A stretch of 64,000 nucleotides of DNA from Gaiellales bacterium (GCA_036273515.1 DASUHM010000002.1:748-64747), one strand, 5' to 3'. Positions 1,434 to 58,385 are shown, counted from the stretch's first letter. The notes: generated from the letters alone by a model not told the origin. Numbers and translations: made by a program.

Positions 1434-1449
1434 GCGGGGTCTGACCCGC
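1434..1449. repeat. Imperfect copy of the GGGGTCWGACCCC palindromic repeat (gcGGGGTCTGACCCgc)
   Basis: Sits directly after the cupin gene stop (1450-1452), in the 63-nt gap before lpd. It shares the GGGGTCTGACCC core with the other copies. Confidence 0.5.
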
Positions 1450-2103
1450 TCATTCAGGCTTGGGGAACGCCGGGTCGTCCCGGATCGAGTCCAGGTCGGA
1501 GTCGTCGGCGGCCCACTCGGCCACGCGCGGGTCGTTCGCGGCGGCGATCGCGAGATGCTCGAGCGCCTTGTCGCGGCGGCCGGCCAGGGCCTGGAAGCAC
1601 GCCAGCTGGTAGTTCAGCTGCCCGGACTCGGGCCACTCGCTGAGCCCCTCCGAGGCCACCTCGATCGCGCCGTCGTAGTCGCCCGCGTTGTACGGCGCCT
1701 CGGCCGCGAACCAGTACTCGAAGGGCGAGGTCGGGATCGGGGAGTCGGCGGGCCCGCCCACGACCAGCACGGTCGTCGCGTCGGCGGTGGCGACGGCGCC
1801 GCGCCTGGCGTTGACGTCCGGGACGAACACCATGGTGCCCGCGGGCGCGTCCACGGTCTCCCCCGCCACGGTGAACTCGGCGTGGCCCGCGACCACCATG
1901 TACAGCTCCTCCTGCCGGCCGGAACCGCCGCCCGCGCCCTCCGTGTGCTGCTCGACGACCTGGTCGCCGGCCTTGTCGGCGGTGTAGGCGTTGATGCCGA
2001 ACGCGCGCACGCCCAGCCGACGGCGGATCGGCCGGTACTGGCCGCCGGCCACCTCGATGCGGTCGAGGTCGTCGAGATGGGCGACGCGGTAGGAGCCGCT
2101 CAC
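1450..2103 (-). CDS. Cupin-domain protein with C-terminal TPR-like helical region
   Basis: 217-aa ORF. The N-terminal half has a cupin beta-barrel pattern (VVEQHTE ... ELYMVVAGHAEFTV ... GTMVFVP). The C-terminal ~70 aa are helical and TPR-like. The GTG start overlaps the upstream stop (GTGA at 2100-2103). Confidence 0.6.
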   Translation of the reverse strand: MSGSYRVAHLDDLDRIEVAGGQYRPIRRRLGVRAFGINAYTADKAGDQVVEQHTEGAGGGSGRQEELYMVVAGHAEFTVAGETVDAPAGTMVFVPDVNARRGAVATADATTVLVVGGPADSPIPTSPFEYWFAAEAPYNAGDYDGAIEVASEGLSEWPESGQLNYQLACFQALAGRRDKALEHLAIAAANDPRVAEWAADDSDLDSIRDDPAFPKPE

Positions 2104-2357
2104 GCTCCGGCCGTCTCGCCGGGCTCGCCGATCCAGGCGATCGTCGCGCCGGGCGGGTACTCGACGCCGGGCGTGCCGACGACCTCGAGCAGGACGCCGT
2201 CGGCCTCGGCCTCGACCTCCTGCGTCACCTTGTCGGTGTCGAGCTCGTAGAGCGGGTCGCCGCGGTGGACGGCCTGTCCCGGCTCCACCAGGAACCGGAT
2301 CAGGACGGCCGGCGCGTCCTCCTCGCCCAGGCTGGGAACCGTCACTGGGGTCGCCAT
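2100..2357 (-). CDS. Free-standing lipoyl-attachment domain protein (85 aa)
   Basis: From the internal ATG at 2357 of ORF 2100..2510: MATPVTVPSLGEEDAPAVLIRFLVEPGQAVHRGDPLYELDTDKVTQEVEAEADGVLLEV. This is the E2/GcvH-type lipoyl domain, with the modifiable Lys in DTDKV. The upstream part of the track ORF is Ser/Arg-rich and would overlap pdhA. Confidence 0.75.
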   Translation of the reverse strand: MATPVTVPSLGEEDAPAVLIRFLVEPGQAVHRGDPLYELDTDKVTQEVEAEADGVLLEVVGTPGVEYPPGATIAWIGEPGETAGA

Positions 2358-2378
2358 CGCGGGCGCAAGCCTAGCGTC

Positions 2379-2384
2379 TAGTGT
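2379..2384 (+). promoter_or_regulatory. -10 box TAGTGT, 7 nt upstream of the pdhA ATG (leaderless candidate)
   Basis: Sequence is TAGTGT tcctgat ATG. Only 34 bp separate the divergent lipoyl-domain and pdhA start codons, and there is no SD. Confidence 0.5.
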
Positions 2385-2391
2385 TCCTGAT

Positions 2392-3468
2392 ATGGCGAAG
2401 ACCGCGGCGGGCGAGGCTTCGGTTCTGAACGACCGAGAGCACGCGCTCGACCTCTTCCGGCAGATGGCGCTGATCCGCCGGTTCGAGGAACGAACCGAGG
2501 AGCAGTACACCAGGGCCCGGATCGGCGGCTACTGCCATCTCGCGATCGGCGAGGAGGCTTCGTCGGTGGGCGCGATCGACGCGCTCGTCGACGGCGACGC
2601 CCTCTACGCCAGCTACCGCGACCATGGCACCGCCCTCGCGGTCGGAAGCCCTGCGGCGGCGGTCATGGCGGAGCTCTTCGGCAAGGAGTCGGGCGTTGCC
2701 CACGGCCGCGGCGGCTCGATGCACCTGCTCGACGTGGAACGCCACTTCTACGGCGGCTGGGGCATCGTCGGGGCGCATCTGCCGATCGCCACCGGAACCG
2801 CCCTCGCGATGACCTATCGGGAGCTCCCGTTCGCCGTCCTGTGCCAGTTCGGCGACGGCGCCGTGGCGACCGGGTCGTTCCACGAGGCGCTCAACCTGGC
2901 CGCGGTCTGGGATCTCCCCATCGTGTTCCATGCGATCAACAACCAGTACGGGATGGGGACGTCGGTGCAGCAGTCGAACGCCGAGCCCGAGCTGTGGAAG
3001 CGGGCCGCCGCGTACCGCATGCACGGCGAGCAGGTCGATGGCAACGACGTGCTCGCGGTGCGCGAGGCGGCCGACCGGCTCCTGCGCCAGGCGCGCGAGG
3101 AGCGCCGGCCGGCGTTGCTCGAGACGATCACCTACCGCTACCGGGGCCACTCGGTGGCCGACGCCGGCAAGGTCTACCGCACCGCCGACGAGGTGCGCTC
3201 CTGGCGCGAGCGCGACCCGATCACGCGCTACGGCCTGCTGCTCGGCGAGCGCGGCCTCGCCACCGCCGCCGATCTCGACGCGATCTGGCAGGACGTCTCG
3301 GCCGTGGTGAAGGACGCGATCGACAAGGCGGTCGCCGCGGCGGCGCCCGGGCGCGACAGCCTCTACGAGCACCTCTACGGCGACCCGGCCCACGAGGAGC
3401 AGTTCTCCCGCATGCAGTCGGGTGCCCCCTACGGCGAGCGCGGAGGCGAGCAGACATGGCCGACGTGA
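2392..3468 (+). CDS. pdhA: 2-oxo acid (pyruvate/acetoin-type) dehydrogenase E1 alpha subunit
   Basis: 358-aa ORF with the TPP-binding motif GDGAVATGSFHEALNLAAVWDLPIVFHAINNQYG. The E1-alpha N-terminus reads FRQMALIRRFEE. The E1 beta gene follows. Confidence 0.9.
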   Translation: MAKTAAGEASVLNDREHALDLFRQMALIRRFEERTEEQYTRARIGGYCHLAIGEEASSVGAIDALVDGDALYASYRDHGTALAVGSPAAAVMAELFGKESGVAHGRGGSMHLLDVERHFYGGWGIVGAHLPIATGTALAMTYRELPFAVLCQFGDGAVATGSFHEALNLAAVWDLPIVFHAINNQYGMGTSVQQSNAEPELWKRAAAYRMHGEQVDGNDVLAVREAADRLLRQAREERRPALLETITYRYRGHSVADAGKVYRTADEVRSWRERDPITRYGLLLGERGLATAADLDAIWQDVSAVVKDAIDKAVAAAAPGRDSLYEHLYGDPAHEEQFSRMQSGAPYGERGGEQTWPT

Positions 3469-4445
3469 CCTACCGCGAGGCGCTGCGCCTGGCCCTCGAC
3501 GAGGAGCTCGGCCGCGACCAGGACGTTTTTCTGATGGGCGAGGAGATCGGGCGTTTCGAGGGCTCCTACAAGGTCACCGCCGGCCTGTGGCAGAAGTACG
3601 GCGCGACCCGCGTACGGGAGACGCCCATCTCCGAGGAGGGCTTCGTCGGCGCGGGCATCGGCGCGGCCATGATGGGCCTGCGGCCGGTAATCGAGATCAT
3701 GACGATCAACTTCATCCTGGTGGCGATGGACCAGGTCATCAACCACGCCGCCAAGATCCGCTACATGTTCGGCGGCAAGGTGGGCGTGCCGCTCGTGATC
3801 CGCGCGCCGGGCGGTGCCGGCGCCCAGTTGACCGCCCAGCACTCGCAGTCGCTCGAGGCCTGGTTCGCCGGCTGCCCGGGCCTGAAGGTGGTCTCGCCGG
3901 CAACGCCGGCGGACGCCTACGGGATGCTGAAGACGGCGATCCGCGACGACGACCCGGTGCTCTTCTGCGAGAACCTGGTGCTCTACAACCTGACCGGCGC
4001 CCTGCCCGAGAACGGCGACGGCCTCGTCCCGCTCGGCCGGGCCGCGATCGCCCGCGAGGGCACCGATCTCACCCTCGTCGCCCACTCCTACACCGTGCAG
4101 CGGGCGCTGCGCGTCGCCGACCGGCTCTCGCAGGACGGGATCTCGGTCGAGGTCGTCGACCTGCGGTCGCTGCGGCCGCTCGACGTCGACACGGTGGCGG
4201 AGTCGGTGCGCAAGACGAACCGGGTGCTGGTCGCCGAGGAGGGCTGGTCGACCTACGGCGTCGGTGCCGAGCTGGCGGCCCGCCTGCAGCGGGTCTGCTT
4301 CGACGACCTGGACGCGCCCGTCGAGCGGGTCGGCCAGGCCGAGGTGCCCATGCCCTACGCGAAGCCGCTCGAGCTCGCCGCGCTGCCGCTCGAGTCGAAG
4401 ATCGAGGCCGCCGCGCGCTCGTTGCTGGCCGAGTGCGGACTGTAA
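3456..4445 (+). CDS. pdhB: 2-oxo acid dehydrogenase E1 beta subunit
   Basis: Internal ATG at 3456 of ORF 2841..4445 gives MADVTYREALRLALDEELGRDQDVFLMGEEIGRFEGSYKVTAGL, a typical E1-beta N-terminus. It overlaps the pdhA 3' end by 13 nt. Confidence 0.9.
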   Translation: MADVTYREALRLALDEELGRDQDVFLMGEEIGRFEGSYKVTAGLWQKYGATRVRETPISEEGFVGAGIGAAMMGLRPVIEIMTINFILVAMDQVINHAAKIRYMFGGKVGVPLVIRAPGGAGAQLTAQHSQSLEAWFAGCPGLKVVSPATPADAYGMLKTAIRDDDPVLFCENLVLYNLTGALPENGDGLVPLGRAAIAREGTDLTLVAHSYTVQRALRVADRLSQDGISVEVVDLRSLRPLDVDTVAESVRKTNRVLVAEEGWSTYGVGAELAARLQRVCFDDLDAPVERVGQAEVPMPYAKPLELAALPLESKIEAAARSLLAECGL

Positions 4446-4454
4446 GGTTCGCCC

Positions 4455-5735: not shown

Positions 5736-5750
5736 CCCCGGCAGGGCACG

Positions 5751-5756
5751 TACACT
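5751..5756 (+). promoter_or_regulatory. -10 box TACACT, 7 nt upstream of the CBS gene ATG
   Basis: Sequence is TACACT cgggctg ATG(5764), the same geometry as the other leaderless candidates. Confidence 0.35.
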
Positions 5757-5763
5757 CGGGCTG

Positions 5764-6225
5764 ATGGAACTGACGGACGTGATGGCGACGCACGTGGTGA
5801 CGGTGTCGCCCGACACCCAGATCGGTGACGCGGCCCGCCACATGGTCGAGGCCGACGTCGGCGCCGCGATGGTGGTCGACGAGGCGGGCAACCTGGTCGG
5901 CGTGATCAGCGAGCGCGACCTGATGCGCTGCGTGAGCGACGGCACCGACCCGGCCACGCCCGTCAGCGAGCGGATGACCAGCCACGTCCTCACCGCCGCC
6001 CCGGACACGAACATCCCCGAGGCGATGGCGCTCATGGTCGACGGCCACTTCCGCCACCTGCCGGTGGTGAACGGCGACGGCCAGGTGGTCGGCGTCATCT
6101 CGATGCGCGATCTGATGGCCTACACCTCGCTGCGGCTGCGCGGCGGCAGCCTCGGCCACGACGACGATCTCGACCCGGCCGAGGTGATCGCCACGATCTT
6201 CCGCATGCGCACCGGCGCCGCCTGA
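5764..6225 (+). CDS. CBS-domain pair protein
   Basis: 153-aa ORF with two CBS repeats (MATHVVTVSPDT...GVISERDLMR and MTSHVLTAAPDT...GVISMRDLM). Confidence 0.85.
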   Translation: MELTDVMATHVVTVSPDTQIGDAARHMVEADVGAAMVVDEAGNLVGVISERDLMRCVSDGTDPATPVSERMTSHVLTAAPDTNIPEAMALMVDGHFRHLPVVNGDGQVVGVISMRDLMAYTSLRLRGGSLGHDDDLDPAEVIATIFRMRTGAA

Positions 6226-6227
6226 TC

Positions 6228-6240
6228 GGGGTCAGACCCC
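6228..6240. repeat. GGGGTCAGACCCC perfect 13-nt palindrome (REP-like), 3 nt after the CBS stop
   Basis: Read directly from the sequence. It belongs to the family also seen at 13878, 25034, 34745 and 58363. Confidence 0.8.
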
Positions 6241-6285
6241 GAACGGCGGGCGCGCGCAAGCCGTTGCGCTTCCGTGACCACCGTT

Positions 6286-6302
6286 AAGGGGACTGTCCCC
6301 TT
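6286..6302. terminator. Second GC hairpin AAGGGGAC-T-GTCCCCTT between the convergent CBS and GFA genes
   Basis: Perfect 17-nt palindrome about 34 nt downstream of the GFA stop. There is no U-tract. It could act as a bidirectional terminator or REP variant. Confidence 0.4.
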
Positions 6303-6335
6303 GACGGGCGGCCCGGGGCCAGGTCCCGCTTCCAG

Positions 6336-6677
6336 TCACGAGTCCCAGGGGTACTCGTCGTGCTGAGGCAGGTCGTCCGAGATCTCGTACCACGGGGCCT
6401 TGGATCCGACGAACATGTGGGCCATCGGCCTGAGGGCGGGTTCGTCGATCCGCGTGCCGTACGGCACGCGGACATACATGCCTTCGGGCGCCGTGCGCGT
6501 GAAGTAGACAAGCGACCAGCACTCTCGGCAGCCCATTGCGTGGTCCGGGCCGTTGTCCTCGATCACGGCAGAGCCGGTCGTCGCGCGGCAATTGGAGCAA
6601 TGGCAGTTGTAGGCGACGATGAACTCGCCGGCGACCTCGTACTGCACCGCACGGCATCCGCAGCGCCCCCGGAGCAT
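6336..6677 (-). CDS. GFA (glutathione-dependent formaldehyde-activating / CENP-V) family zinc protein
   Basis: 113-aa ORF with the Cys pattern CGCRAV ... CHCSNCR that is typical of the GFA fold. Confidence 0.7.
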   Translation of the reverse strand: MLRGRCGCRAVQYEVAGEFIVAYNCHCSNCRATTGSAVIEDNGPDHAMGCRECWSLVYFTRTAPEGMYVRVPYGTRIDEPALRPMAHMFVGSKAPWYEISDDLPQHDEYPWDS

Positions 6678-6683
6678 CCCGGC

Positions 6684-7880: not shown

Positions 7881-7920
7881 AGACGGGATCCTAATCCCGG
7901 CTGCGATACTTCCGTCGCAG

Positions 7921-8484: not shown

Positions 8485-8544
8485 AACCGGCCGACTCCGG
8501 CACGCGTAGCCGGATGAACCGAACCCAGGAGGTCGACCCCGTCC

Positions 8545-11459: not shown

Positions 11460-11466
11460 AGCTCAC

Positions 11467-11520: not shown

Positions 11521-11527
11521 CCCCGCG

Positions 11528-13841: not shown

Positions 13842-13871
13842 GCGGGCGGGCCTCCGAGGAAGTCCGCCCGC
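13842..13871. terminator. GC hairpin GCGGGCGG-N14-CCGCCCGC between convergent genes
   Basis: 8-bp perfect stem read from the sequence, with no U-tract. It is adjacent to the REP-like copy at 13878. Confidence 0.35.
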
Positions 13872-13877
13872 AGGGTC

Positions 13878-13890
13878 GGGGTCAGACCCC
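13878..13890. repeat. GGGGTCAGACCCC palindrome overlapping the stop codon of ORF 13882..14247
   Basis: On the minus strand, the last codons GGG GTC TGA of the ORF lie inside the repeat. Confidence 0.8.
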
Positions 13891-14247
13891 TAGCGCCATC
13901 CGCCGGCGGCCGCGGAGGCCGATGGCCCCGGCGCCGACGAGGACGATCGACACGATGAAGCCCGCGCCGATCAGGGCGGACGTCCAGTCGAACGAGCTGT
14001 GAGTCACGGTCTTCGTGGTCGCGACCGGGACCTGGTGGATGTTCGTCACCTGCGCGAGCGTGCCGACCTTGTCAGCGCGGTCGGGCGAGAGCCGGACGTT
14101 GGTGTCCACCGACCGGTACGTGCCCTGATAGCCGGAAGCCGTCGAGGTGACGGGCTTGACGATGGCGAGCGGCTTGGCGGACGCAACCGGGGCGGCGACG
14201 GCGAGGACCGCGGCAGCCACGATGAGGGAGCGAGTCATGCGGAACAT
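13882..14247 (-). CDS. Secreted protein with C-terminal TM anchor and Arg-rich tail
   Basis: I chose the ATG at 14247 because SD GGAAGGA lies 7 nt upstream. The product is MFRMTRSLIVAAAVLAVAAPVASA (signal peptide), then a ~70-aa domain, then FDWTSALIGAGFIVSIVLVGAGAIGLRGRRR (sorting-signal-like tail). Confidence 0.55.
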   Translation of the reverse strand: MFRMTRSLIVAAAVLAVAAPVASAKPLAIVKPVTSTASGYQGTYRSVDTNVRLSPDRADKVGTLAQVTNIHQVPVATTKTVTHSSFDWTSALIGAGFIVSIVLVGAGAIGLRGRRRMALGV

Positions 14248-14361
14248 GTCTGGATCCTTCCGGGTGTGAGGGGAAAACATGGCCGCAGGCTACGGACGCG
14301 CGGTCACGCGTTCCACATCGCCCGATCCGGACGACGTGTGACGACGATCACACACGCGAGA

Positions 14362-21797: not shown

Positions 21798-22585
21798 GCG
21801 CGCTGGCGCACGGCCTCGTAGAGCGCGAGCGTGGCCGCCTGGGCGGCGTTCAGCGACTCGGCGCCGGCCGCCTGTGGAACCGCGCAGACGACGTCGCAGG
21901 CCTCCACCACATCGGGGGGTAGCCCGTGCCGCTCGGCGCCCACGACGAGGGTCGTCGGGGCGGTCAGGTCGGCCTCCCAGAGCGGCGTGTCCGCCCCGGC
22001 CACGAGGGCGACGCGCGTGCCGTCCTCCGGCACCTCGGCGCCCGTCTCGATCGGCACGCGGAAGACGGCGCCCATCGAGGCCCGCACGCCCTTCCCGGCC
22101 AGCGGGTCGGAGCAGCCCGGCGACAGCGCCAGCCGCGCCGGCCCGAGCGCGCCGCACGCCCGCACGACGGTGCCGACGTTGCCCGGATCGATCACGCGGT
22201 GCAGATAGACGGCCAGGGGTGAAGAACCGGTGCCTGGCACCGGATATTCATGCGGGAGCGAGGCGATGTCGTAGAGGGCGATGACGCGGGCCGGGTGGCC
22301 CAGGCCGCCCACCTCGGCGAGCAGCGCGTCGCGCACCGGGAGCACCGGCCCACCCCGTGCCAGCCGCGCGATCAGGCCCTCGTCGGGCGGCCGGTCGGCC
22401 GCGATCAGCGTCTCGACGGGCAGGATCCCAGCCGCGAGCGCCTCCTCGACGATGTCCTCGCCCTCGGCCAGGAACTGCCCCAGCGCACGCCGGTGCCGGC
22501 GGGCCTGGAGCTTGCGCGCGTGCTTCAGCCGGGCGTTGCCGTGGGAGGTGATTGGCTCCACGGCGGGGAGCCCGTCATGCTGCAA
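21770..22585 (-). CDS. TrmH/SpoU-family RNA 2'-O-methyltransferase
   Basis: 271-aa ORF with SpoU motifs ([42 protein letters not shown]). The TTG start at 22585 overlaps the rplT 3' end. An alternative GTG lies at 22561. Confidence 0.8.
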
Positions 22586-24033: not shown

Positions 24034-24678
24034 GTGTTCCACGACCGCACCCAGGCAGGAGCGGCGCTCGCAGCGGCGATGCCGGAGCTGCGCAAGAAGG
24101 CGAACGTGACCGTCGTCGGGCTGGCGCGCGGCGGAGTCGAGGTGGCGGCGGAGACCGCCCGGCTGCTCGATCTGCCGCTCGACGTGCTGTGCGTCCGCAA
24201 GGTGGCGACGCCGGGCCATCCCGAGCTGGCGATGGGCGCCGTCGCCCCCCAGGGCGAGCGCTACACGAACCGGCGCGTCGCCGGCCGGCTCACGCCGATC
24301 CAGGTCGATGCGGCGTACGACACCGCGACCGCCCAGGCGCGGGAGATGGACGAGCGACTGCGCGGCGGCACGCCGATGATGCTCGTCGGGCGCACCGCGA
24401 TGATCATCGACGACGGCGCCGCGACCGGCGCCTCGATCCGGGCGGCCCTGGCGGCGGTGCGAAACGCCGGCGCCCGCCAGACCGTTATCGCGCTGCCCGT
24501 CCTGCCGCGGCTCGCCGTCGAGCGGCTCGAACGCGAGTGCGACCGGCTGGTCACGCTGCGAGCGCCCCAGCGCTTCCACGCTGTCAGCCAGTTCTACGAG
24601 CACTTCGACGAGGTCACCGAGTCACGCGTGATGGCGCTGCTCGCAACCGCGAAGCCCGCGGTCGAGCTCACCGTCTGA
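24034..24678 (+). CDS. Phosphoribosyltransferase-family protein
   Basis: 214-aa ORF with a GTG start. The PRPP-binding loop is AMIIDDGAATGAS, and the N-terminus reads FHDRTQAGAALA...VVGLARGGVEVA. CATTAT lies 6 nt upstream of the start. Confidence 0.75.
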   Translation: MFHDRTQAGAALAAAMPELRKKANVTVVGLARGGVEVAAETARLLDLPLDVLCVRKVATPGHPELAMGAVAPQGERYTNRRVAGRLTPIQVDAAYDTATAQAREMDERLRGGTPMMLVGRTAMIIDDGAATGASIRAALAAVRNAGARQTVIALPVLPRLAVERLERECDRLVTLRAPQRFHAVSQFYEHFDEVTESRVMALLATAKPAVELTV

Positions 24679-24689
24679 CACGGGGGGCC

Positions 24690-25020
24690 GTGGCGCCCAC
24701 CGCGATCGTCGTGGCGTTTCCCGACGTCCCGGCGCATGTGACGCTCATCTACCCGTTCGTCGACGACGCCGACCTGGCGGACGACGAAGTCCCTCGCCTG
24801 CGCGGCCCGCTCGCCGCTTTTCGCGCCATTCGACGTGCTCTACCTGGAGCCGGAGCCCGCCGGGCCCTTCCTCGGGATGATCGCGGCGTTGGCACTCTTT
24901 CCGCCGTCGAGGCCGAGGTCGACCGCCACCTGCCCTTCAATGCTCGGGTCGCCGAGGTCGCCGCGCTCGACAGGGAGACTCGGCTCGACCGCCTCTACGG
25001 CGCCCCCAACGAACGCGCTC
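24690..25020 (+). pseudogene. Degraded 2H-phosphoesterase (LigT / 2'-5' RNA ligase-like) gene
   Basis: Frame 0 reads (V)APTAIVVAFPDVPAHVTLIYPFVDDADL...PLAAF. The family-typical block FDVLYLEPEPAGPFLGMIAALALFPP is in frame +1. The frame then returns to frame 0. No second HxT/S motif is present, and no frame has a stop near the expected end. Confidence 0.45.
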
Positions 25021-25024
25021 AGAC

Positions 25025-25055
25025 GCACCAAAAGGGGTCTGACCCCGTTTGGTGC
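25025..25055. repeat. Extended REP-like hairpin GCACCAAAAGGGGTC-T-GACCCCGTTTGGTGC
   Basis: 15-bp arms with one mismatch. It lies directly after the stop of the hotdog gene (25057). Confidence 0.8.
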
Positions 25056-25056
25056 G

Positions 25057-25476
25057 TCAGTGGCCGGCGACGATGCCCGCGCCGCCCGGGCCGCGCTGGT
25101 GCTCGCGGCGGACGACGTAGGTGCCGCGGGCACGGGTGGCGAGGATCGGGTCGGGGAGCAGGTCGGCGGCGGAGTCGCTCACATCCGGGCGGGCCGAGAT
25201 CTCCTTCCAGATCTCGAGATCCACCGTCCGGCTGGTGGTGCCCATGCGCACGATCGTGCCGGTCGCGCGGACGAAGTCGCCGCCGTAGAGCGGCGCCAGG
25301 AACTCGACCTTCTCGTAGCCGGCGAAGAGGCCCTCGTCGCCGTCCGTGCGGATGGCGAGCTCGGTGACGATGTCGCCGAACAGCTCCAGGCCGTGCGCGC
25401 CGTCGACCAGGTTGCCGCCGTAGTGGACGTCGGCCGCCGACAGGCGCACCCGAAGCTCGACGCTCATGCCCTCCAT
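25057..25476 (-). CDS. Hotdog-fold protein resembling 3-aminobutyryl-CoA ammonia-lyase (Kal)
   Basis: 139-aa ORF with the motif block SAADVHYGGNLVDGAHGLELFGDIVTELAIRTDGDEGLFAGYEKVEFLAPLYGGDF. This matches my recollection of the Kal/hotdog family. It is the last gene of the peptide operon. Confidence 0.55.
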   Translation of the reverse strand: MEGMSVELRVRLSAADVHYGGNLVDGAHGLELFGDIVTELAIRTDGDEGLFAGYEKVEFLAPLYGGDFVRATGTIVRMGTTSRTVDLEIWKEISARPDVSDSAADLLPDPILATRARGTYVVRREHQRGPGGAGIVAGH

Positions 25477-34718: not shown

Positions 34719-34735
34719 CGGCGCGGCCCGCCGCC

Positions 34736-34766
34736 GCACCGTGCGGGGTCAGACCCCATTTGGTGC
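34736..34766. repeat. REP-like copy GCACCgtgcGGGGTCAGACCCCatttGGTGC, plus a half copy at 34788-34797
   Basis: Lies between the convergent HutC and thrS genes. The half copy supplies the thrS terminal codons GGG GTC TGA. Confidence 0.8.
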
Positions 34767-34788
34767 GTCTGCGCCGCACCACCTGGCG

Positions 34789-36708
34789 TCAGACCCCTGT
34801 CGCGGCAGATCGCCTGGTTGCGGCTTCGGCGACGAGCTCGTCGCGCAGCTCGGCCAGCGGGCGGGCGCCCAGGTTGCCCTCGTCGCGGCGGCGCAGCGAG
34901 ACGGCGCCCGCCTCGACCTCCTTGTCGCCGACCACGAGGATGCAGGGGATGCGCTGGTGCTCGGCCTCGGCGATCTTCTTGCCGACCGACTCGGTGCGCA
35001 GGTCGGGCTCGGCCCGCAGGCCGGCAGCGACCAGGTCGGCGGCGACCTGGGTCGCATAGTCGTCGTGACGGTCGGCGACCGGCAGCACGATCGCCTGGAG
35101 CGGCGCCAGCCACAGCGGGAACGCGCCCGCGTAGTGCTCGATCAGGATGCCGATGAAGCGCTCGAATGCGCCGAACAGCGCCCGGTGCACCATCGCCGGC
35201 CGGTGCTCGGCGTTGTCGTCGCCGGTGTAGACCATGTCGAACCGCTCGGGCATCTGGTAGTCGAGCTGGATCGTGCCCATCTGCCACGACCGGCCCACCG
35301 AGTCGGTCATGTGCAGGTCGATCTTGGGGCCGTAGAAGGCGCCGTCGCCCTCGTTCAGGTCGTACTCCTCGCCGGCGCGCGCCAGCGCGTTCGCGAGCGC
35401 CCCCTCCGCCCGGTCCCAGAGGGCGTCGTCGCCGATCCGGTTCTCGGGCCGGGTCGAGAGCTCGAGCCGCACCGGCAGGTCGAAGATGCCGTAGATGTGG
35501 CGGGCCAGCTCGAGGCAGCCGATCACCTCGTCCTCGACCTGATCGTCGGTGCAGAAGATGTGGGCGTCGTCCTGGGTGATGTGGATGACGCGGAGCAGGC
35601 CGTGGAGCGCGCCGGACGGCTCGTCGCGGTGCACCAGCCCCTGCTCGGCGAGCCGCATCGGCAGGTCGCGGTAGCTGCGCCGGGCCGCCTGGTAGATCTC
35701 GACGTGGCCGGGGCAGTTCATCGGCTTCACGCCCAGCGGGCGCTCGTCCTTCTCGGTGAAGAACATGTTCTCGCGGTACTTGTCCCAGTGCCCGGAGCGG
35801 CGCCAGATGTCGACCGAGTAGATGATCGGCGTGCGCACCTCGCGGTAGCCCCAATCCCGGTTCAGCTCGCGCCAGAGCCGGGTCAGCTCGTTCCAGATGA
35901 CCATGCCGCGGGGGTGCCAGAACGGCGCCCCCGGCGCCACGTCGGAGGTGTGGAAGAGGTCGAGCTCGCGGCCGATCCGGCGATGGTCGCGGCGGCGCGC
36001 CTCCTCCAGCAGCCGCAGATGCTCGTCGAGGTCGGCCTGCTTGAAGAAGGCGGTGCCGTAGATGCGGGTGAGCATCGTATTGGCCGAGTCGCCGCGCCAG
36101 TACGCGCCGGCCTGCGAGAGCAGCTTGAACGCCTTGATCGGCGCGGTCGTCTGCAGGTGCGGCCCGCGGCAGAGGTCCTCGAAGTCGTCGTTTCGGTACA
36201 GGCTGATGTCGCCGTCCGGAAGGCCCTCGGCCAGCTCGAGCTTGTACGGCTGGTGCTCCGCCTCGAACCGCGCCAGCAGCCCGGGCTTCTCGACCCCGTC
36301 CTCGCGGACGAAGTCCGCCGGGGTCTTCAGGATGCGGCGCATCTCGGCCTCGATCTTCTCGAGATCCTCGGGCCCGATCGGCTCGGCGAACTCGAAGTCG
36401 TAGTAGAAGCCGTCGGCGATGGCGGGGCCGATCGCGATCTTCGTGTCCGGCCACAGGTGCAGCACGGCCTGCGCCATGACGTGGGCAGTCGAGTGGCGCA
36501 GCACCGCGAGCGCCTCCGGGTCGCGGTCGGTGAGGATGCGCAGGCTCTCCCCCTCGTGTACGGGCAGGCGCAGGTCGCGCACCTCGCCGTCGACCTGGAG
36601 GGCGACTGCGGCCTTGGCCAGGCGGGGGCCGACGGCCGCGGCGGCGTCGAGGCCGCTGGCACCGTCGGGAAGGTCGAGCCCGCTGCCGTCGGGGAGGGTC
36701 ACTTTCAT
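34789..36708 (-). CDS. thrS: Threonine--tRNA ligase
   Basis: The product has a TGS domain (MKVTLPDGSGLDLPDG), class II motifs (FHTSDVAPGAPFWHPRG, RVIHITQDDAHIF) and an anticodon-binding domain. I prefer ATG 36708 because TATGCT lies 7 nt upstream. The track start at 36720 is the alternative. Confidence 0.93.
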   Translation of the reverse strand: MKVTLPDGSGLDLPDGASGLDAAAAVGPRLAKAAVALQVDGEVRDLRLPVHEGESLRILTDRDPEALAVLRHSTAHVMAQAVLHLWPDTKIAIGPAIADGFYYDFEFAEPIGPEDLEKIEAEMRRILKTPADFVREDGVEKPGLLARFEAEHQPYKLELAEGLPDGDISLYRNDDFEDLCRGPHLQTTAPIKAFKLLSQAGAYWRGDSANTMLTRIYGTAFFKQADLDEHLRLLEEARRRDHRRIGRELDLFHTSDVAPGAPFWHPRGMVIWNELTRLWRELNRDWGYREVRTPIIYSVDIWRRSGHWDKYRENMFFTEKDERPLGVKPMNCPGHVEIYQAARRSYRDLPMRLAEQGLVHRDEPSGALHGLLRVIHITQDDAHIFCTDDQVEDEVIGCLELARHIYGIFDLPVRLELSTRPENRIGDDALWDRAEGALANALARAGEEYDLNEGDGAFYGPKIDLHMTDSVGRSWQMGTIQLDYQMPERFDMVYTGDDNAEHRPAMVHRALFGAFERFIGILIEHYAGAFPLWLAPLQAIVLPVADRHDDYATQVAADLVAAGLRAEPDLRTESVGKKIAEAEHQRIPCILVVGDKEVEAGAVSLRRRDEGNLGARPLAELRDELVAEAATRRSAATGV

Positions 36709-36715
36709 GCTCGGC

Positions 36716-36721
36716 AGCATA
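36716..36721 (-). promoter_or_regulatory. -10 box TATGCT, 7 nt upstream of thrS ATG 36708
   Basis: The minus strand reads TATGCT gccgagc ATG. Confidence 0.45.
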
Positions 36722-40401: not shown

Positions 40402-41031
40402 CTACCCGGACAGCTCGCGTAGCGAGACGGTGTAGGCGATCGACCACCGCTTGCCGCAGTTGTGGCAGGTGCGATCGCCCTCGGCGGAGACGTCGAGGTT
40501 CGAGCCGGACCTCTCGCGGATGACCGTCTCCAGCCCCTGGCCGCACGCGGGGCATGCGATCACGACCTGCCGGATCCGGTCCGGTCCCCGCCGGCTCGGC
40601 GGCGGAAGCCGGCCGATGACCTCGTTTCGGATGGTCTCGGCATCCGCGTCGAACTCGAGCAGGATGCGTGCCGCGACGCCCTCGTTCTCGCGGACGAGGC
40701 CGAGCAGGATGTGCTCGGTCGCGATGTAGTCATGGCCGAGCGAAAGCGACTCCCGCAGCGCCAGCTCGAGCACATTCCTGGCCCGTGGAGTGAAGGCGAT
40801 CTGGCCGGTGACGACCTCATCTCCCTGAGCGACGATCCGGGCGACCTGCGCACGCACCTCCTCTTCGGTGACGTGGAGGGTCTCCAGGACGCGGGCAGCG
40901 AGGCCGTCCTCCTCGCGCAGCAGGCCCAGCAGGATGTGCTCGGTGCCGATGTAGTCGTGCTTCAGCGTGCGGGCCTCGTCCTGCGCGAGGACGACCACCT
41001 GGCGGGCCCGCTCCGTGAACCGTTCGAACAT
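40402..41031 (-). CDS. Clp-N domain protein with C-terminal zinc-ribbon, paralog 1
   Basis: 209-aa ORF with the same architecture. The C-terminus reads ACPACGQGLET...GDRTCHNCGKRWSIAYTVS. It shares a 15-nt upstream block, GCTCTGCGAGACTGA, with paralog 2. Confidence 0.85.
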   Translation of the reverse strand: MFERFTERARQVVVLAQDEARTLKHDYIGTEHILLGLLREEDGLAARVLETLHVTEEEVRAQVARIVAQGDEVVTGQIAFTPRARNVLELALRESLSLGHDYIATEHILLGLVRENEGVAARILLEFDADAETIRNEVIGRLPPPSRRGPDRIRQVVIACPACGQGLETVIRERSGSNLDVSAEGDRTCHNCGKRWSIAYTVSLRELSG

Positions 41032-41170
41032 ACCCTCAGTCTCGCAGAGCGGTCATCGCCGTTCGTCTTTGCCGCAGCCGGGCCGGGTGGCTGTGACGGA
41101 GGACTTCGCCTTCCGCGGCGGAGGCGAGACCGCGCTCTCGCCGGAGCGCACGAGGGCCCGCCACATCCCC

Positions 41171-41202
41171 GACGCGGGGGGACCCATGGGTTCCCCCGCG
41201 TC
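41171..41202. terminator. GC hairpin GACGCGGGGG-gacccatgggtt-CCCCCGCGTC enclosing the Nudix stop codon
   Basis: 10-bp perfect stem whose inner CCCATGGG is also palindromic. There is no U-tract. Confidence 0.4.
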
Positions 41203-41578
41203 AAAGATGCTTGCGCGCGCGGGCGAGCACGTCCCGGTCGGTGGCGTAGGTGAGGAGCTCCTCGACGCCGTCCGGGGCGAGCCAGCGCACGTCGTCGACG
41301 TCGTCGGCCGTGTCGATCGCGTCGGCGCAGGCGGTCATCAGATACCAGCGGACGGTCTTCGGGCGGCCGCTGGCGACCTCGTAGGAGACCGTGCCGAGAT
41401 CCCGCTCGATGACCGCCTCGCGGCCCGTCTCCTCGCGCACCTCGCGCACGGCCGCGGTCGCGTCGTCCTCGCCGGGCTCGAGCTTGCCCTTCGGCAGCGA
41501 CCAGTCGCCGTGCTGCGGCCGGTGGACGACCGCGATCAGCCCATCACGGCGCACGACCCCGCCGGCCGCGCGGATCAT
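41201..41578 (-). CDS. Nudix hydrolase
   Basis: 125-aa ORF with the Nudix box GKLEPGEDDATAAVREVREETG. Its ATG overlaps the upstream stop (ATGA). Confidence 0.9.
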   Translation of the reverse strand: MIRAAGGVVRRDGLIAVVHRPQHGDWSLPKGKLEPGEDDATAAVREVREETGREAVIERDLGTVSYEVASGRPKTVRWYLMTACADAIDTADDVDDVRWLAPDGVEELLTYATDRDVLARARKHL

Positions 41579-49131: not shown

Positions 49132-49144
49132 GATCAGCGCCCCC

Positions 49145-49174
49145 GGGCCAGGCCCCGCGCGCGGGGCCTGGCCC
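49145..49174. terminator. Perfect 30-nt GC palindrome GGGCCAGGCCCCGCG|CGCGGGGCCTGGCCC
   Basis: Read directly from the sequence. It lies 14 nt after the stop at 49131 and 24 nt before the -10 box of the next gene. Confidence 0.5.
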
Positions 49175-49197
49175 CTCCCATCCCTGACCGGTTGCTC

Positions 49198-49203
49198 TAG
49201 GAT
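49198..49203 (+). promoter_or_regulatory. -10 box TAGGAT, 6 nt upstream of ATG 49210
   Basis: Sequence is TAGGAT cggcgg ATG. Confidence 0.45.
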
Positions 49204-49209
49204 CGGCGG

Positions 49210-51278: not shown

Positions 51279-51303
51279 ACACCGCGCTCGCGGATTCGCG
51301 CTT

Positions 51304-54435: not shown

Positions 54436-55979
54436 CCCCCGTCATCGACGCCCGCGACCTCTTCCGCATCCACAGAAGCGCCGAGGGCGAGGCGGCGGCG
54501 CTCCAGGGTCTGACGATGCACGTCGACCCCGGCGAGGTGGTCGCCGTGCTGGGCCCGAGCGGGTCGGGCAAGAGCACGCTGCTTCGGATCCTGGCCGGCC
54601 TGGAGCGGCCGTCGGCGGGCACCGCCCGCGTGCTCGGGCACGACATGGCCGAGCTGCGCCCCCGCCGCGCCGCCTCCCTGCGGGCGCGCTCGCTCGGGAT
54701 CGTCGACCAGCACTACCACCGCTCGCTCCCGCCGGAGCTGCGCTGCCGCGAGATCGTCGGCCTCCAGCTGGCCATGCTCGGCGTGGCCGCCGCCGACCGC
54801 GACCGGCGGGCCGCCGAGCTGCTCGAGCGGGTGGGCCTCGCCGATGCGGCGGAGACGCCGCCGGGGAGGCTCTCGGGCGGCGAGCAGCAGCGGGTCGCGA
54901 TCTGCGCGGCCGTGGCCCACCGCCCCGCCCTCCTGCTGGCCGACGAGCCGGCCGGCGAGCTCGACGCGAAGAACGTCGCGGTCGCCTACGAGCTGATCGC
55001 CGAGCTGGCCCGCGACGACGGCGCGACGGTCGTCCTCGTCAGCCACGACCCGGCGGCGACCACCGTCGCCGACCGCACCGTCCACATCCGCGACGGCCGC
55101 CTGAGCGACGAGGCGTCGGCCGGCGGCGCGAGCGCGATCGTCGTCGGCAGCGGCGGCTGGCTGCGGCTGCCCGAGGAGCTCCTGCGCGACGCCGGCGTCG
55201 GCCGGCTGGCGCGGGCGGAGCGGCACGACCAGGGCATCCTGATCACGCCCGCCGGGCCTGCCGCCACCCCCGTCCCCGAGCCGGCTGTCCCCATGCCCGC
55301 ACCCGAGCGACCGGCGCCGACGGCCGCGGCCGAGCTGCGCGACGTCACCATGCGCTACGGCGAGGGCCGGCGGGCGCGGGTCGTGCTCGACGGCTTCGGC
55401 GCGACGTTCGAGTCGGGCAGGATGACGGCGCTGACCGGCCGGTCGGGCTCGGGCAAGAGCACCGTGCTGCGGCTCCTGGCCGGGATGGAGCACCCGACCT
55501 CGGGCGAAGTGGCCGTGCTGGGGAGCTCGATCGGCGGGCTCGACCGGGCCGCGGCGGCAGCCTTCCGGCGCGATCATGTGGCCGTCGTCGCGCAGGAGGC
55601 GGGGCTCGTCGACTACCTCTCGGCCACCGAGAACGTGACCCTGGCGATGGCGATGCGGGGGCTCGGCGAGGGCGAGGCGGCCACCGAGACGGCCGCGACC
55701 TGGCTCTCCCGCGTCGGGCTCGGCCACCGCCTCGAGCACCGCGTGGCGCGGCTCTCGGCCGGCGAGCGCCAGCGCGTGGCGATCGCCCGCGCTCTCGCCT
55801 GCGAGCCCGACCTGCTCCTGGTCGACGAGCCGACCTCGCGGCTCGACCAGGTGAACGCGGCCGTCGTCGCGCGCATGCTCGCCGACGCCGCCCGCCTGCA
55901 TGGCGCCACCATCGTCTGCGCCACCCACGACCCGCTCGTCACCGAGCAGGCCGACGTGGTCATGCCGCTCGAGCGCTGA
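54432..55979 (+). CDS. Tandem-NBD ABC ATPase with inter-domain AbrB/SpoVT-like segment
   Basis: GTG at 54432. NBD1 has [20 protein letters not shown] and LLADEP. NBD2 has [21 protein letters not shown] and LLVDEP. The linker reads [33 protein letters not shown]. Confidence 0.85.
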
Positions 55980-56020
55980 AGTGTTGACCTGTTCGCCAAG
56001 TGGCCGCATGCTGGTGACGG

Positions 56021-57694
56021 GTGTCGAGCACACGTCTCCGATCTGCGGTTCTCGCGGTGTCCGTCCTTGCCGTCGCCATGTCGGCGGGCTCGGCGTTCGC
56101 AACCACGAACCTGCTGCCGAACGGCGGGTTCGAGGGCGCGGGGTCAGGCTCGCTGACCGGCTGGAAGGGAGTTCGCGCCACGCTCAGCGTGCGGCCCGAC
56201 GGCCGCGGCGGCGGGCACGCGGTCCGCGCCCTCCGCACGAGCGGCACGAGCTACTCGATCGTCGCGAGCCCGAACCCGACGCCCAGCACCGCCGGCCGCC
56301 TGTACCGCGCCCGCGGCGACGTGCGCTCCGGCCGGGTCGGCCGCACCGTCTGCCTGAAGCTGCTCGAGATGACGCCCGCCGGGCGCGTCGCCGGGCAGAG
56401 CTCCGGCTGCATCAAGCCCGTCGACGCATGGCGCGCCTTCCCGACGGTCAACTACACCGCCAAGCGGGCCGGCGACACGATCTCGTTCCGGGTCGTGCAG
56501 ACCTCGCGCGCGGTCGCGGGCGATAGCTTCCAGGTCGACGCCCTCAGCCTGACCTCGCCGTCGGACGACGCCAGCCCGCCGGCCGCGCCTACCGGATTCA
56601 CCGCCCAGGCGGCGTCGCAGACGCGGGTCGCGCTGGCCTGGAATGCATCGACCGACAACCGCGCCGTCGCGGGCTACACGATCTACCGCGGCGGCGTCTT
56701 CCGGGCGACGGTGTTCGGGGCAGCGACGACGACCTTCCTCGACAAGACGGCCGTGGCCGGGAAGACCTACAGCTACGCGATCGACGCCTTCGACGCGTCC
56801 GGCAACCGCTCGGCCCGCACGGCCCAGAAGACCGTGGTCATGCCGGCCGCCGGCGACCCCATCGTCGCCGCCGCCGGCGACATCGCCTGCGATCCCACCT
56901 CCGCCAGCTTCAACGGCGGGAAGGGCACCGCGGCGGCCTGCCAGCAGATGGCGACGTCGGCCATCATCCAGGACGACCCGGCGATCGCGGCCGTGCTCAC
57001 CCTCGGCGACGACCAGTACGGATGCGGCGGCTTCAGCGCCTTCCAGGCGTCGTTCGACCCGTCGTGGGGCCGGTTCAAGGCCAAGATCCACCCGGCCCCC
57101 GGAAACCACGAGTACCAGACGAGCGGCGGCAGCGGCTGCTCACCGAACGCCGCAGGCTACTTCCGCTACTTCGGCGCCGCGGCCGGGAACGCGCAGGGCG
57201 ACTACGCGTGGAACATCGGCGCATGGCACATGATCGCCCTGAACGGCGAGTGCCAGAACGTCGGCGGCTGCGACGCCGGCTCACCGCAGGGCCAGTTCCT
57301 GACGTCGCATCTCGGCACGAGCAGGTGCACCCTGGCCTACTGGCACGAGCCGTACTACAACGGCGGCGGCATCACGAGCTCGAAGTACGCCTACTTCTGG
57401 CAGACGCTGCGGGCCGCGAACGCCGACATCATCCTGAACGGGCACATCCACACGTACGCGCGCTTCGCCCCCCAGGACGCGAACGGCAACGCCGACCCGG
57501 ACGGGGTGCGCGAGTTCATCGTCGGCACGGGCGGCGAGGATCACGGCTCGATGAACGGGTCGACCAATGTCCAGGCCAGCGCCGGCGGCGACTTCGGCGT
57601 CCTCGAGCTGACCCTCCACCCCGCCGGCTACACGTGGAAGATGGTGTCGACGACCGGCGCCGTCCTCGACTCCGGCACCACCGCCTGCACCTAA
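56021..57694 (+). CDS. Secreted metallophosphoesterase with CBM-like and fibronectin-III domains
   Basis: 557-aa ORF with a GTG start and a signal peptide. It has a CBM4/9-like N-terminus (LLPNGGFEG), an FN3 domain (ALAWNASTDNRAVAGYTIYR) and calcineurin-like motifs (GDIACD, GDDQY, GNHEY, NGHIH). Confidence 0.8.
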   Translation: MSSTRLRSAVLAVSVLAVAMSAGSAFATTNLLPNGGFEGAGSGSLTGWKGVRATLSVRPDGRGGGHAVRALRTSGTSYSIVASPNPTPSTAGRLYRARGDVRSGRVGRTVCLKLLEMTPAGRVAGQSSGCIKPVDAWRAFPTVNYTAKRAGDTISFRVVQTSRAVAGDSFQVDALSLTSPSDDASPPAAPTGFTAQAASQTRVALAWNASTDNRAVAGYTIYRGGVFRATVFGAATTTFLDKTAVAGKTYSYAIDAFDASGNRSARTAQKTVVMPAAGDPIVAAAGDIACDPTSASFNGGKGTAAACQQMATSAIIQDDPAIAAVLTLGDDQYGCGGFSAFQASFDPSWGRFKAKIHPAPGNHEYQTSGGSGCSPNAAGYFRYFGAAAGNAQGDYAWNIGAWHMIALNGECQNVGGCDAGSPQGQFLTSHLGTSRCTLAYWHEPYYNGGGITSSKYAYFWQTLRAANADIILNGHIHTYARFAPQDANGNADPDGVREFIVGTGGEDHGSMNGSTNVQASAGGDFGVLELTLHPAGYTWKMVSTTGAVLDSGTTACT

Positions 57695-58329
57695 TCCTTC
57701 CGGCCGGTGACGGCCAGGCGCAGGCCGAGGCCGATCAGCACCACGCCGCCGGCGCCCGCGAGCGCTTCGAGCCGCCCGCGCGAGCGCGCGATCCAGGTGC
57801 GGGCCGAGCCGGAGGCGATCGCCCACGCGCTGTCGGAGATCACGCCGATCGTGAGGAAGACGATGCCCAGGACGAGCAGCTGCAGCGGCACGTGGCCGCG
57901 TGACGGATCGGCGAACTGCGGAATGACCACGGTGAAGACGACGACGGCCTTCGGATTCGTGAAGCCGACGATGAAGCCCTCGCGCACGATCCGGCGGGTG
58001 CCCCTGGGCACCTCGGTCGCGTCGTGCAGGGCGGCCAGGCCGTGGCGGTTTCGGAGCATGCGCAGGCCGAGCACCACGAGGTAGACGGCGCCGATCAGCT
58101 TGACCGCGGTGAACGCGGCGTCGGAGCGCTCGACCAGCGCCCCCAGACCGAGGGCGACGAGGATCGCCTGCACCATCACGCCGGCGGTGTTGCCGGCCAC
58201 GGTCGCGAGCGCGGCCTTGCGCCCCAGCGCCACCCCGCGGCTGACGACGAAGAGCACGCTCGGCCCCGGCACGACGATCAGCACGAAGGCCGTGATCGCG
58301 AACTCGAGCAGGTGGTCGCCGGGAGGCAT
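57691..58329 (-). CDS. LysE/RhtB-family amino-acid exporter
   Basis: 212-aa ORF with FVLIVVPGPSVLFVVS... TAGAGT lies 8 nt upstream of the ATG (58338-58343). Its stop overlaps the phosphoesterase stop (CTAA). Confidence 0.85.
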   Translation of the reverse strand: MPPGDHLLEFAITAFVLIVVPGPSVLFVVSRGVALGRKAALATVAGNTAGVMVQAILVALGLGALVERSDAAFTAVKLIGAVYLVVLGLRMLRNRHGLAALHDATEVPRGTRRIVREGFIVGFTNPKAVVVFTVVIPQFADPSRGHVPLQLLVLGIVFLTIGVISDSAWAIASGSARTWIARSRGRLEALAGAGGVVLIGLGLRLAVTGRKD

Positions 58330-58352
58330 GCCCGCCGACTCTAACCGCCGCC

Positions 58353-58385
58353 GTGAATAAAAGGGGTCTGACCCCGTTTCTTCAC
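58353..58385. repeat. Extended REP-like hairpin GTGAATAAAAGGGGTC-T-GACCCCGTTTCTTCAC
   Basis: It shares the identical 21-nt core AAAAGGGGTCTGACCCCGTTT with the copy at 25031. The outer arms differ but remain complementary. Confidence 0.8.

Follow-up and report, generated by a model that had tools for sequence, protein, structure and literature searches.

REP-like hairpin repeats linked to two RAYT-type transposase genes in an uncultured soil Gaiellales bacterium

Repetitive extragenic palindromic (REP) elements and the REP-associated tyrosine transposases (RAYTs) have so far been worked out almost wholly in Proteobacteria. In Pseudomonas fluorescens SBW25 and its relatives, hundreds of short palindromes lie between genes, inverted doublets of them (REPINs) are able to form a single long hairpin, a genome may contain several RAYT/REP pairs, and each RAYT is approximately single-copy, flanked by its repeats and kept at a fixed locus through speciation (PMC3116915, PMC5581495). 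In E. coli, imperfect palindromes are found at gene 3' ends and the gene for TnpA-REP (YafM; structure 4ER8) is bracketed by inverted REPs, an arrangement known as a 'REPtron' (PMC3479197). The 2013 catalogue of tagged REPs never mentions Actinobacteria (PMC3733652), the Actinobacteridae sampled in the 2018 survey of Y1 transposases had IS200-type enzymes only (PMC6006769), and neither reports REP-associated RAYTs from actinobacteria. Here we describe a palindrome family from an actinobacterial host, recognized in a 64,000-nt stretch of a Gaiellales genome (GCA_036273515.1, DASUHM010000002.1:748-64747; hereafter the window), which shares each of the SBW25 and E. coli features listed above. We read the palindromes as REP/REPIN elements, that is, non-autonomous hairpin repeats belonging to two RAYTs of the HUH/Y1 class encoded in the same genome, and assign this reading a probability of roughly 0.85.

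The repeats share a 13-nt palindromic core, GGGGTCWGACCCC. A preliminary description of the window had proposed a REP-like family with perfect copies at 6228, 13878, 25034, 34745 and 58363; all five are present at these positions, and its near-copies, placed here at 1436-1448, 34785-34797 and 6288-6300, are also real. A scan that tolerated up to two mismatches returned nine matches, including those at 1436, 6288, 34785 and 49163. The 4.07-Mb assembly (98 contigs, 96.6% complete) contains 261 exact cores, 132 with A and 129 with T at the centre; C or G occupies the centre in only four further copies. We considered whether the core might arise by chance in GC-rich sequence, or serve as a DNA-uptake-type signal without any link to a transposase, as the genome has 72% G+C (67-77% within the window) and is rich in palindromes. 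However, Markov models of order 1, 3 and 5 give an expectation of 0.02-0.15 per strand for either form. The genome-wide count that had been proposed as a check is 261 against a total of less than 0.3, an enrichment of more than 800-fold, and 100 dinucleotide-preserving shuffles of the window gave an expectation of zero perfect cores against the five observed.

The core is by a wide margin the commonest 6-N-6 palindrome of the genome (the runner-up has 100 copies), and one-mismatch variants of it number just 36. Among the 16 possible forms of GGGGNN-N-NNCCCC, only TC (265 copies), CC (54) and AC (32) are abundant, the remaining 13 occurring 0-2 times each. These three alike prefer A or T at the centre and are about 90% intergenic. 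The backwards control pattern had no match in 41 genomes. If composition alone favoured the word, most copies would be expected within the coding 91% of the genome, whereas 92% of the cores are intergenic. The counts, shuffles, Markov models and 16-form comparison refute a compositional artefact, and we regard the chance or uptake-signal explanation as having next to no credibility. Our literature search found no paper that carries the exact 13-mers.

When all copies were oriented on a central T, the 13-mer proved to be the shared core of larger units with at least four types of arm. Type A accounts for about 140 cores with the inner flank GAACG, and includes about 58 inverted doublets of 63 nt with the pattern nAAnC-GGGGTCAGACCCC-GAACGnCGGCC-GTKRCAnTTyC-GTKRCrnTTCC-GTTC-GGGGTCTGACCCC-GnTTn. 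Genome-wide, 62 pairs of cores lie 47-53 nt apart, about 58 of which are type-A doublets; 54 are separated by exactly 50 nt, and in 49 the centres are A then T. One such doublet is predicted to fold, as single-stranded DNA, into a single long hairpin of 20-23 bp (-29.7 kcal/mol, z = -7.9). About 20 type-A singlets consist of the left core and a third 11-mer. Type B (approximately 66 cores) is a 33-nt hairpin, YGCACCAAAA-core-GYTTGGTGCG, with a conserved A.G mismatch (mostly A.C too) at the foot of the core stem. Type C (about 15-20 cores) has the arms (C/G)TGAATAnnn and nnnTATTCA(G/C), type D (several cores) has CCCGCCAnnn and nnnTGGCGGG, and about 25 cores are bare. Type-B units span 33-39 nt and type-A doublets 63-73 nt. 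The CC and AC cores occur in the majority as inverted doublets 17-24 nt apart.

The core flanks are themselves conserved, with nAAnC before and GnTT after (C 99%, A 83%, A 72%). The nAAnC and GnTTn flanks are mirror images rather than direct duplications and may belong either to the element or to its target. A miniature inverted-repeat transposable element derived from a DDE-transposase insertion sequence would have terminal inverted repeats, a target-site duplication and a parent element with the same ends; here the ends are inverted, and the only genes with matching ends are those for Y1 transposases. The type-A interior contains an 11-nt periodic TTCCGT/GTKRCA repeat, with similar direct repeats in the flanks of one of the transposase genes (RAYT-A, below).

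A second palindrome family, GTGAATAACCGGTGCC-W-GGCACCGGTTATTCAC, was observed alongside these repeats. It is represented by GGTGCCWGGCACC in 30 copies, 25 of them intergenic, and it carries the type-C arms GTGAATA/TATTCAC on a different core, often adjoining type-B REPs. An arm-less copy, GGTGCCTGGCACC, lies inside a predicted gene at 22229 in the window, and the family is also found at the thrS-end site (below) in L037, L040 and L045. Since type-C arms occur on a different core, arms and cores look modular.

A Pfam Y1_Tnp search of the whole genome found two genes, one of each of two types, 21.7 kb apart on contig C8 (C8:47165-47980 and C8:68845-69489). The search for a RAYT/TnpA-REP transposase suggested by the preliminary description therefore yielded two RAYT-type genes, both flanked by the repeats. 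The encoded proteins, RAYT-A (180 aa) and RAYT-B (240 aa), are 45% identical to each other, and the genes score 43.6 and 39.5 bits against PF01797 (cut-off 23). The best NCBIfam family of both is REP_Tyr_transpos, the REP-associated tyrosine transposases (E = 1e-20 and 3e-22). In an alignment of RAYT-A with the E. coli TnpA-REP structure 4ER8, H-Y-H corresponds to H-M-H (H59-M-H61) and ARYIVENPV to VDYIYINPV (Tyr115), with residue numbers counted along the 4ER8 chain. The HUH motif and the predicted catalytic tyrosine are intact, and in this alignment they stand in register with those of the E. coli enzyme. RAYT-B has a C-terminal extension with a weak, below-cut-off match to a helix-turn-helix family (HTH_38, E = 1.6e-4).

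RAYT-A is bracketed by type-A ends, with one core at -98 and the other overlapping the stop codon; RAYT-B is bracketed by type-B REPs, with one core at -89 from the start and the other overlapping the stop. At both genes the upstream core has A at its centre and the downstream core T, so that they form an inverted pair. The stop codon of each RAYT is a TGA within the downstream core, and both proteins end in Gly-Val, as do orthologues from other species (...PPPFGV, ...NIGV).

The same association is found in relatives. All 24 genomes sampled within the genus contain the TC core, at 16-240 copies each, and it extends to some other genera of the order. Within the genus, 28 of 31 genomes carry Y1 genes; across the order, REP_Tyr_transpos-like genes were found in 39 of 61 genomes and matches above 80 bits in 14, including the genus members G020, G021, G009 and G045. 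We located 20 further RAYT loci in relatives with an inverted pair of TC, AC or CC cores at equivalent positions, and three more with a core on one side. At four RAYT-A loci that are syntenic with the one described here, the flanks are approximately 82-95% identical in translated matches and the RAYT 70-88%; in eight genomes the two RAYT matches lie 18-22 kb apart. Each type of RAYT is represented by one gene in the genome and has been passed on vertically at a constant position, the pair of loci recurring about 21 kb apart in sister species.

In a maximum-likelihood tree, the RAYT-A clade (support 100/99) contains a TC-flanked clade (100/99) with a CC-flanked pair as its sister and AC-flanked members as a basal grade; in the RAYT-B group, the fully bracketed members carry TC cores. 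Variation in the core flanking RAYT-A is confined to one compensated base pair (TC, AC or CC) and follows the RAYT-A tree. AC cores number 126-238 in five of the six genomes whose RAYT-A is AC-flanked and 53 in the sixth, G020, against 28 and 22 in the TC-flanked genomes G000 and G001; this link between flanking and abundant core is based on AC and TC counts only, the TC counts being without G041-G046. Relatives of RAYT-A (52-53% identical) were also seen on two contigs of Nitrospira metagenome-assembled genomes (L006, L010), with no GGGGNN-type cores nearby. They group inside the actinobacterial RAYT-A-side clade and could reflect horizontal transfer or a binning error.

These observations bear on the suggestion that the palindromes are sites for a host DNA-binding protein, such as a nucleoid protein, a regulator, or gyrase or an IHF-like factor as at the bacterial interspersed mosaic elements (BIMEs) of E. 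coli, with the type-A TTCCGT/GTKRCA units serving as extra sites. The core is strictly conserved with its A or T centre, the direct repeats of the type-A interiors and RAYT-A flanks have a period of 11 nt, one helical turn, and the dimorphic GTGACA/GTTGCA motifs look constrained rather than decayed. However, the RAYTs are the only candidate proteins linked to the sites, the distribution tracks gene ends and not promoters, and the core changes with the RAYT-A lineage, as expected if the RAYT reads it. We consider host-protein sites improbable.

Arm pairing was counted directly on an ungapped registered alignment of 118 distinct copies other than type A. Arm positions 3-10 are paired in 76% of cases, compared with 61% for shuffled partners (maximum 64%) and 32-44% when the arms are slid by 1-3 nt. 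Several arm positions have two or three Watson-Crick alternatives (C-G/T-A, C-G/A-T, C-G/G-C, G-C/T-A/C-G), each in at least eight copies. The covariation proposed earlier stands in so far as the arms stay complementary; the changes, however, distinguish the discrete subfamilies B, C and D from one another and are not drift inside a single family. The complementarity may reflect selection for a hairpin. Self-templated correction of quasi-palindromes would be an alternative route to complementary arms.

The core appears to be under tighter constraint than the interior of the unit. No two type-A doublets are identical; they differ on average at 7.7 of 37 interior positions (about 21%), with one interior position saturated. 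At most three type-B copies have one 35-mer in common. When type-A units were found by their interior alone, the left core was perfect in 67 of 68 and none had 1-3 mismatches. The sole tolerated change in the core is at stem position 5 and is always compensated. This points to continuing constraint acting at each locus, whose source may be either recognition by a RAYT or a host function.

The window contains the following copies, with sequences given in the orientation stated.

1421-1456, plus strand: degenerate type-C REP, GTGAATAAGC-GGGGTCTGACCCG-CTCATTCAG, between two tandem minus-strand genes.
6223-6305, plus strand: type-A doublet with unlike cores, TGAtc-GGGGTCAGACCCC-GAACG...GTTGCGCTTCC GTGACC...GTTAA-GGGGACTGTCCCC-TTGAC.
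13878-13890, minus strand: solo core with no recognizable arms, supplying GGG GTC TGA of the minus-strand open reading frame (ORF) 13882-14280.
25019-25061, plus strand: type-B REP with a long hairpin, GACGCACCAAAA-GGGGTCTGACCCC-GTTTGGTGCGTC.
34733-34770, minus strand: type-B REP whose arms are slightly degenerate, minus-strand sequence CAGACGCACCAAAT-GGGGTCTGACCCC-GCACGGTGCGG, between a convergent GntR-family gene and thrS.
34772-34797, minus strand: partial type-B copy, a one-mismatch core (GGGGTCTGACGCC on the minus strand) with the right arm AGGTGGTGCGG.
49141-49176, no strand assigned: tight doublet of the sister CC (GGGGCC) core, cGGGCCAGGCCCC-gcgcgc-GGGGCCTGGCCCC, between tandem plus-strand genes.
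58351-58387, plus strand: type-C REP, CCGTGAATAAAA-GGGGTCTGACCCC-GTTTCTTCACCGG, in a divergent region.

The 21-mer shared by the copies at 25025-25055 and 58353-58385, AAAAGGGGTCTGACCCCGTTT, is as first described, as are their differing outer arms (GCACC/GGTGC and GTGAA/TTCAC) and the 3' extension common to the 25034 and 34745 copies, TTTGGTGCGTC. Besides the covariation, three points of the preliminary description needed revision. The 'half copy' at 34788-34797 is a real copy but comprises a full one-mismatch core (34785-34797) plus one arm. The 'related palindrome' at 6288-6300 is present but is not a separate element, being the second core (AC, the first being TC) of the doublet that begins at 6228. 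The CC-core doublet at 49141-49176, which includes a 30-nt perfect palindrome (49145-49174), had been missed. The type-B REP at 25019-25061 has a predicted single-stranded DNA fold of -19.4 kcal/mol (z = -7.5); the type-C REP at 58351-58387 reaches -9.7 kcal/mol (z = -3.3) and the 34-nt segment 1423-1456 reaches -8.9 kcal/mol (z = -3.5). For the bare core at 13878 the predicted fold is no more stable than that of shuffled sequence. A search of the 64-kb window against Rfam gave no match to a curated structured-RNA family at the gathering score, and a known RNA family is rejected on that basis.

Several features were noted at or near these copies. To the right of the doublet at 6223-6305 (window 6300-6336), synteny with L013 (G042), L016 (G023) and L018 (G018) ends exactly at the doublet: the neighbour in the three sister species is a convergent gene starting '...gatctgccaggcgcc', and here it is a different gene (6336-6647, minus strand). 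This is possibly a rearrangement breakpoint at a REP. A GC-rich hairpin, GCGGGCGG...CCGCCCGC, at approximately 13842-13871, just upstream of the 13878 core in the convergent gap, may be the original gene-end hairpin of that site. The roughly 355 nt at 24679-25033, after a gene ending at 24678, are coding-like (for example ...VAFPDVPAHVTLIYPFVDDADL...) although the gene caller found no ORF there, and may represent a gene that has decayed or suffered a frameshift. At 41164-41209 lies an unrelated imperfect palindrome of 46 nt, CATCCCCGACGCGGGGGGACCCATGG / CCATGGGTTCCCCCGCGTCAAAGATG, which takes up the larger part of the gap separating two genes that end at 41031 and 41201 and extends a few bases into the second.

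Positions relative to genes were determined on our own gene map, which was called with a model of codon usage and third-position G+C trained on long ORFs of high third-position G+C (4035 genes, 91% coding). By this map 240 of the 261 cores (92%) are intergenic, compared with 9% of the genome that is non-coding, which extends to the whole genome the intergenic bias proposed from the window; the claim that every copy in the window is intergenic or straddles a stop codon also holds. Most of the 21 'coding' cores are within 50 nt of the end of an ORF or about 30 nt from a predicted start. Convergent gaps hold 102 cores (402 gaps), tandem gaps 107 (1585 gaps) and divergent gaps 22 (605 gaps). The divergent setting of the 58363 copy was borne out by its neighbours, an RhtB/LysE-type exporter gene (57691-58329, minus strand) and a nucleotide-sugar dehydrogenase gene (58494-59861, plus strand).

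The distance from the facing stop codon to the core has sharp peaks at 2 nt, 10-13 nt and -9 nt. The first consists of the outer ends of type A, with TAAnC or TGAnC ahead of the core (29 and 13 cases), the second of type B with the stop abutting the arm, and the third of 20 genes whose terminal GGG GTC TGA lies inside the core. TAA accounts for 6.5% of all called stops and fills positions -5 to -3 in 30 of 139 outer flanks of type A; of the 42 stop triplets found there, 33 terminate a called gene. In the window, the CBS-domain gene 5764-6225 stops at the TGA at 6223-6225. The minus-strand 3-aminobutyryl-CoA ammonia-lyase gene (25057-25476) stops at the TCA at 25057-25059, where the right arm ends, and ORF 1450-2103 stops at the TCA at 1450-1452, in the right arm of the 1421-1456 REP. 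The repeat had been said to supply the Gly-Val-stop of thrS and of the ORF here called at 13882-14280; this is right, and the 20 genes ending inside the core make it general. For thrS (34789-36720, minus strand; TIGR00418, 661 bits, which confirms its identity) the terminal GGG GTC TGA is provided by the partial copy at 34772-34797. Since the A/T-rich ends and the GGG GTC TGA of the core supply stops, the element can sit on or against the end of a reading frame, and because these ends function on both strands, one element can close both genes of a convergent pair.

This distribution raises the alternative that the palindromes are gene-end hairpins kept by the host, as bidirectional terminators or as stabilizers of mRNA 3' ends, with the transposase only seeding them. 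Such a role is compatible with the REP/RAYT reading. The excess in convergent over divergent gaps, the stability of the hairpins, the perfection of type-A cores at each locus in spite of divergent interiors, and the confinement of change to a compensated fifth stem position would all be expected. However, there is no run of T after the hairpin on either strand (in a matrix of 66 type-B copies, T is at most 0.5 at every position after the stem), which rules out a canonical intrinsic terminator. Terminators that lack a U-tract have been reported in high-GC actinobacteria, and the hairpins may be of that kind. Orientation is unbiased with respect to the upstream gene (10 versus 17 for type B, 34 versus 25 for type A), so a strand constraint at the RNA level is rejected, and the 22 copies in divergent promoter regions, that at 58363 included, do not fit a 3'-end role.

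Orthologous sites in other species argue in the same direction. At the thrS end, G020 has no repeat and the GntR-family gene and thrS overlap by about 13-16 nt (read by eye). Type B is found at this site in G000 and G007, type C in G001, G014, G021, G042, G044 and G045, CC or AC cores in G003, G018, G022 and G024, and a different palindrome in G010, G015 and G043. At the CBS-gene site, G023 has an empty 18-nt spacer, and G000, G042 and G018 have a TC/AC doublet whose interior has diverged with the cores largely kept. Because a given gene end bears quite different repeats in sister species, or lacks one altogether, a repeat is not required at any individual site. A terminator or stabilizer role is neither supported nor refuted, and we judge retention by the host on that account to be rather unlikely. 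Reading through three occupied sites (G000, G001 and G042) placed the thrS stop within the repeat, so that the last residues of ThrRS differ between species. The differences in presence and type at orthologous sites are indirect evidence that the elements may be mobile.

We therefore return to the interpretation of the palindromes as REP/REPIN elements of the two RAYTs. By analogy with E. coli TnpA-REP and IS200/IS605, a RAYT would bind the hairpin that the core forms in single-stranded DNA (GGGGT / CWG loop / ACCCC) and cut beside it; candidates for cleavage or guide positions are the C/G conserved at its foot and, two bases further out, the AA/TT. The enzyme would then move or copy single REPs and 63-nt doublets, and copies would accumulate at gene ends because insertions are tolerated there. 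Stops are brought in by the A/T-rich ends (TAAnC, TGAATAA, TGAcgcacc) and by the GGG GTC TGA of the core, and any effect of the repeats on transcripts would be secondary. Enrichment, intergenic bias, arm complementarity and the two repeat-flanked RAYT-type genes are all positive for the REP-like label first given to the family.

Most defining features of a REP/RAYT system are present, and the two exceptions head the points that weigh against this interpretation. The GTAG/GTGG tag of the well-studied proteobacterial REPs is absent from the conserved flanks, and against REP_Tyr_transpos the two RAYTs reach 73.6 and 79.2 bits, or 75.2 and 79.6 when the whole genome is searched, narrowly missing the 80-bit equivalog cut-off. 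The AC and CC cores and types C and D have no cognate transposase in this 96.6%-complete assembly, and G043 is an exception to the link between flanking and abundant core, with a TC-flanked RAYT-A yet 194 AC cores. As all doublets differ, a recent burst of identical copies is rejected. Cores are conserved far better than interiors, which simple selfish decay does not predict and which leaves room for a host function. The family itself, its distribution and hairpin potential, its linkage to the transposases, their vertical inheritance and the turnover between species are established here; catalysis, a single-stranded intermediate and any influence on transcripts are inferred.

A fuller scenario can be sketched, and we offer it tentatively, at somewhat below even odds. 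RAYT-A, at its fixed locus, may have switched the fifth pair of the REP stem from AC, which the tree suggests to be ancestral, to CC and to TC. The genome-wide REPs would largely have followed, leaving behind relics with AC and CC cores as well as hybrid TC/AC doublets like the one at 6228-6300. In the lineage of this genome, RAYT-A would now use the same core as its paralogue RAYT-B. As cores appear to stay intact at each locus and interiors drift, the repeats would be under continuing selection rather than simply decaying. With A/T-rich ends that serve either strand as portable caps carrying a stop codon, an element could sit on or between convergent gene ends.

The family is thus a known kind of element in a lineage for which the literature that we found describes none, and repeats, doublets, two cognate transposases and vertical inheritance are all visible in an uncultured soil Gaiellales. 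The repeats account for many of the odd intergenic palindromes in such metagenome-assembled genomes. They change the C-terminal residues and stops of ordinary genes, the thrS end differing in almost every species, and masking or annotating them during gene calling is advisable. The one-base-pair core switches that track the RAYT-A tree provide a simple, testable handle on how an HUH enzyme reads its hairpin; if the scenario is true, the genus is a natural series in the co-evolution of an HUH transposase with its DNA hairpin.

Repeats that carry stop or start signals for neighbouring genes are known from the mycobacterial interspersed repetitive units (MIRUs) and from E. coli REPs near stop codons. 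The copies described here similarly abut or overlap stops and remodel protein ends, but their stop-bearing ends are part of a RAYT-linked palindrome and act on both strands. Compared with the REPIN-RAYT system of SBW25, the Gaiellales family has no GTAG head and no dominant master sequence, every doublet is unique, and two RAYT paralogues are associated with the same 13-nt core in different flanks. Compared with E. coli TnpA-REP, the enzyme is weakly similar in sequence (E = 1e-3), the REPs are of unrelated sequence, the foot mismatch is A.G (A.C in most copies), and RAYT-B has its extra C-terminal segment.

The HTH-like extension of RAYT-B recalls the TIRYT or subclass 2.1 TnpA-REP proteins, which have a C-terminal helix-turn-helix (PMC3733652, PMC6006769), and the flanks of RAYT-A, like theirs, are terminal inverted segments (about 60 nt) rather than bare hairpins. 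The terminal inverted repeats of that group are reported to be long, of moderate copy number and without REP-like hairpins nearby, whereas here a high-copy hairpin is present within the flanks. Many type-B copies end in ...GGTGCGTC, which places CGTC at one end of the palindrome as in the CGTC-tagged REPs (PMC3733652). In those elements, however, CGTC is unpaired, stems are 8-9 bp with loops of 4-5 nt, and a link to a transposase is lacking. In full copies of the present family GCGTC and GACGC are paired with each other, a core stem of 5-6 bp and an outer stem of 7-10 bp enclose an internal loop, and a RAYT is flanked by the repeats; membership of the CGTC-tagged family is rejected on this mismatch in anatomy.

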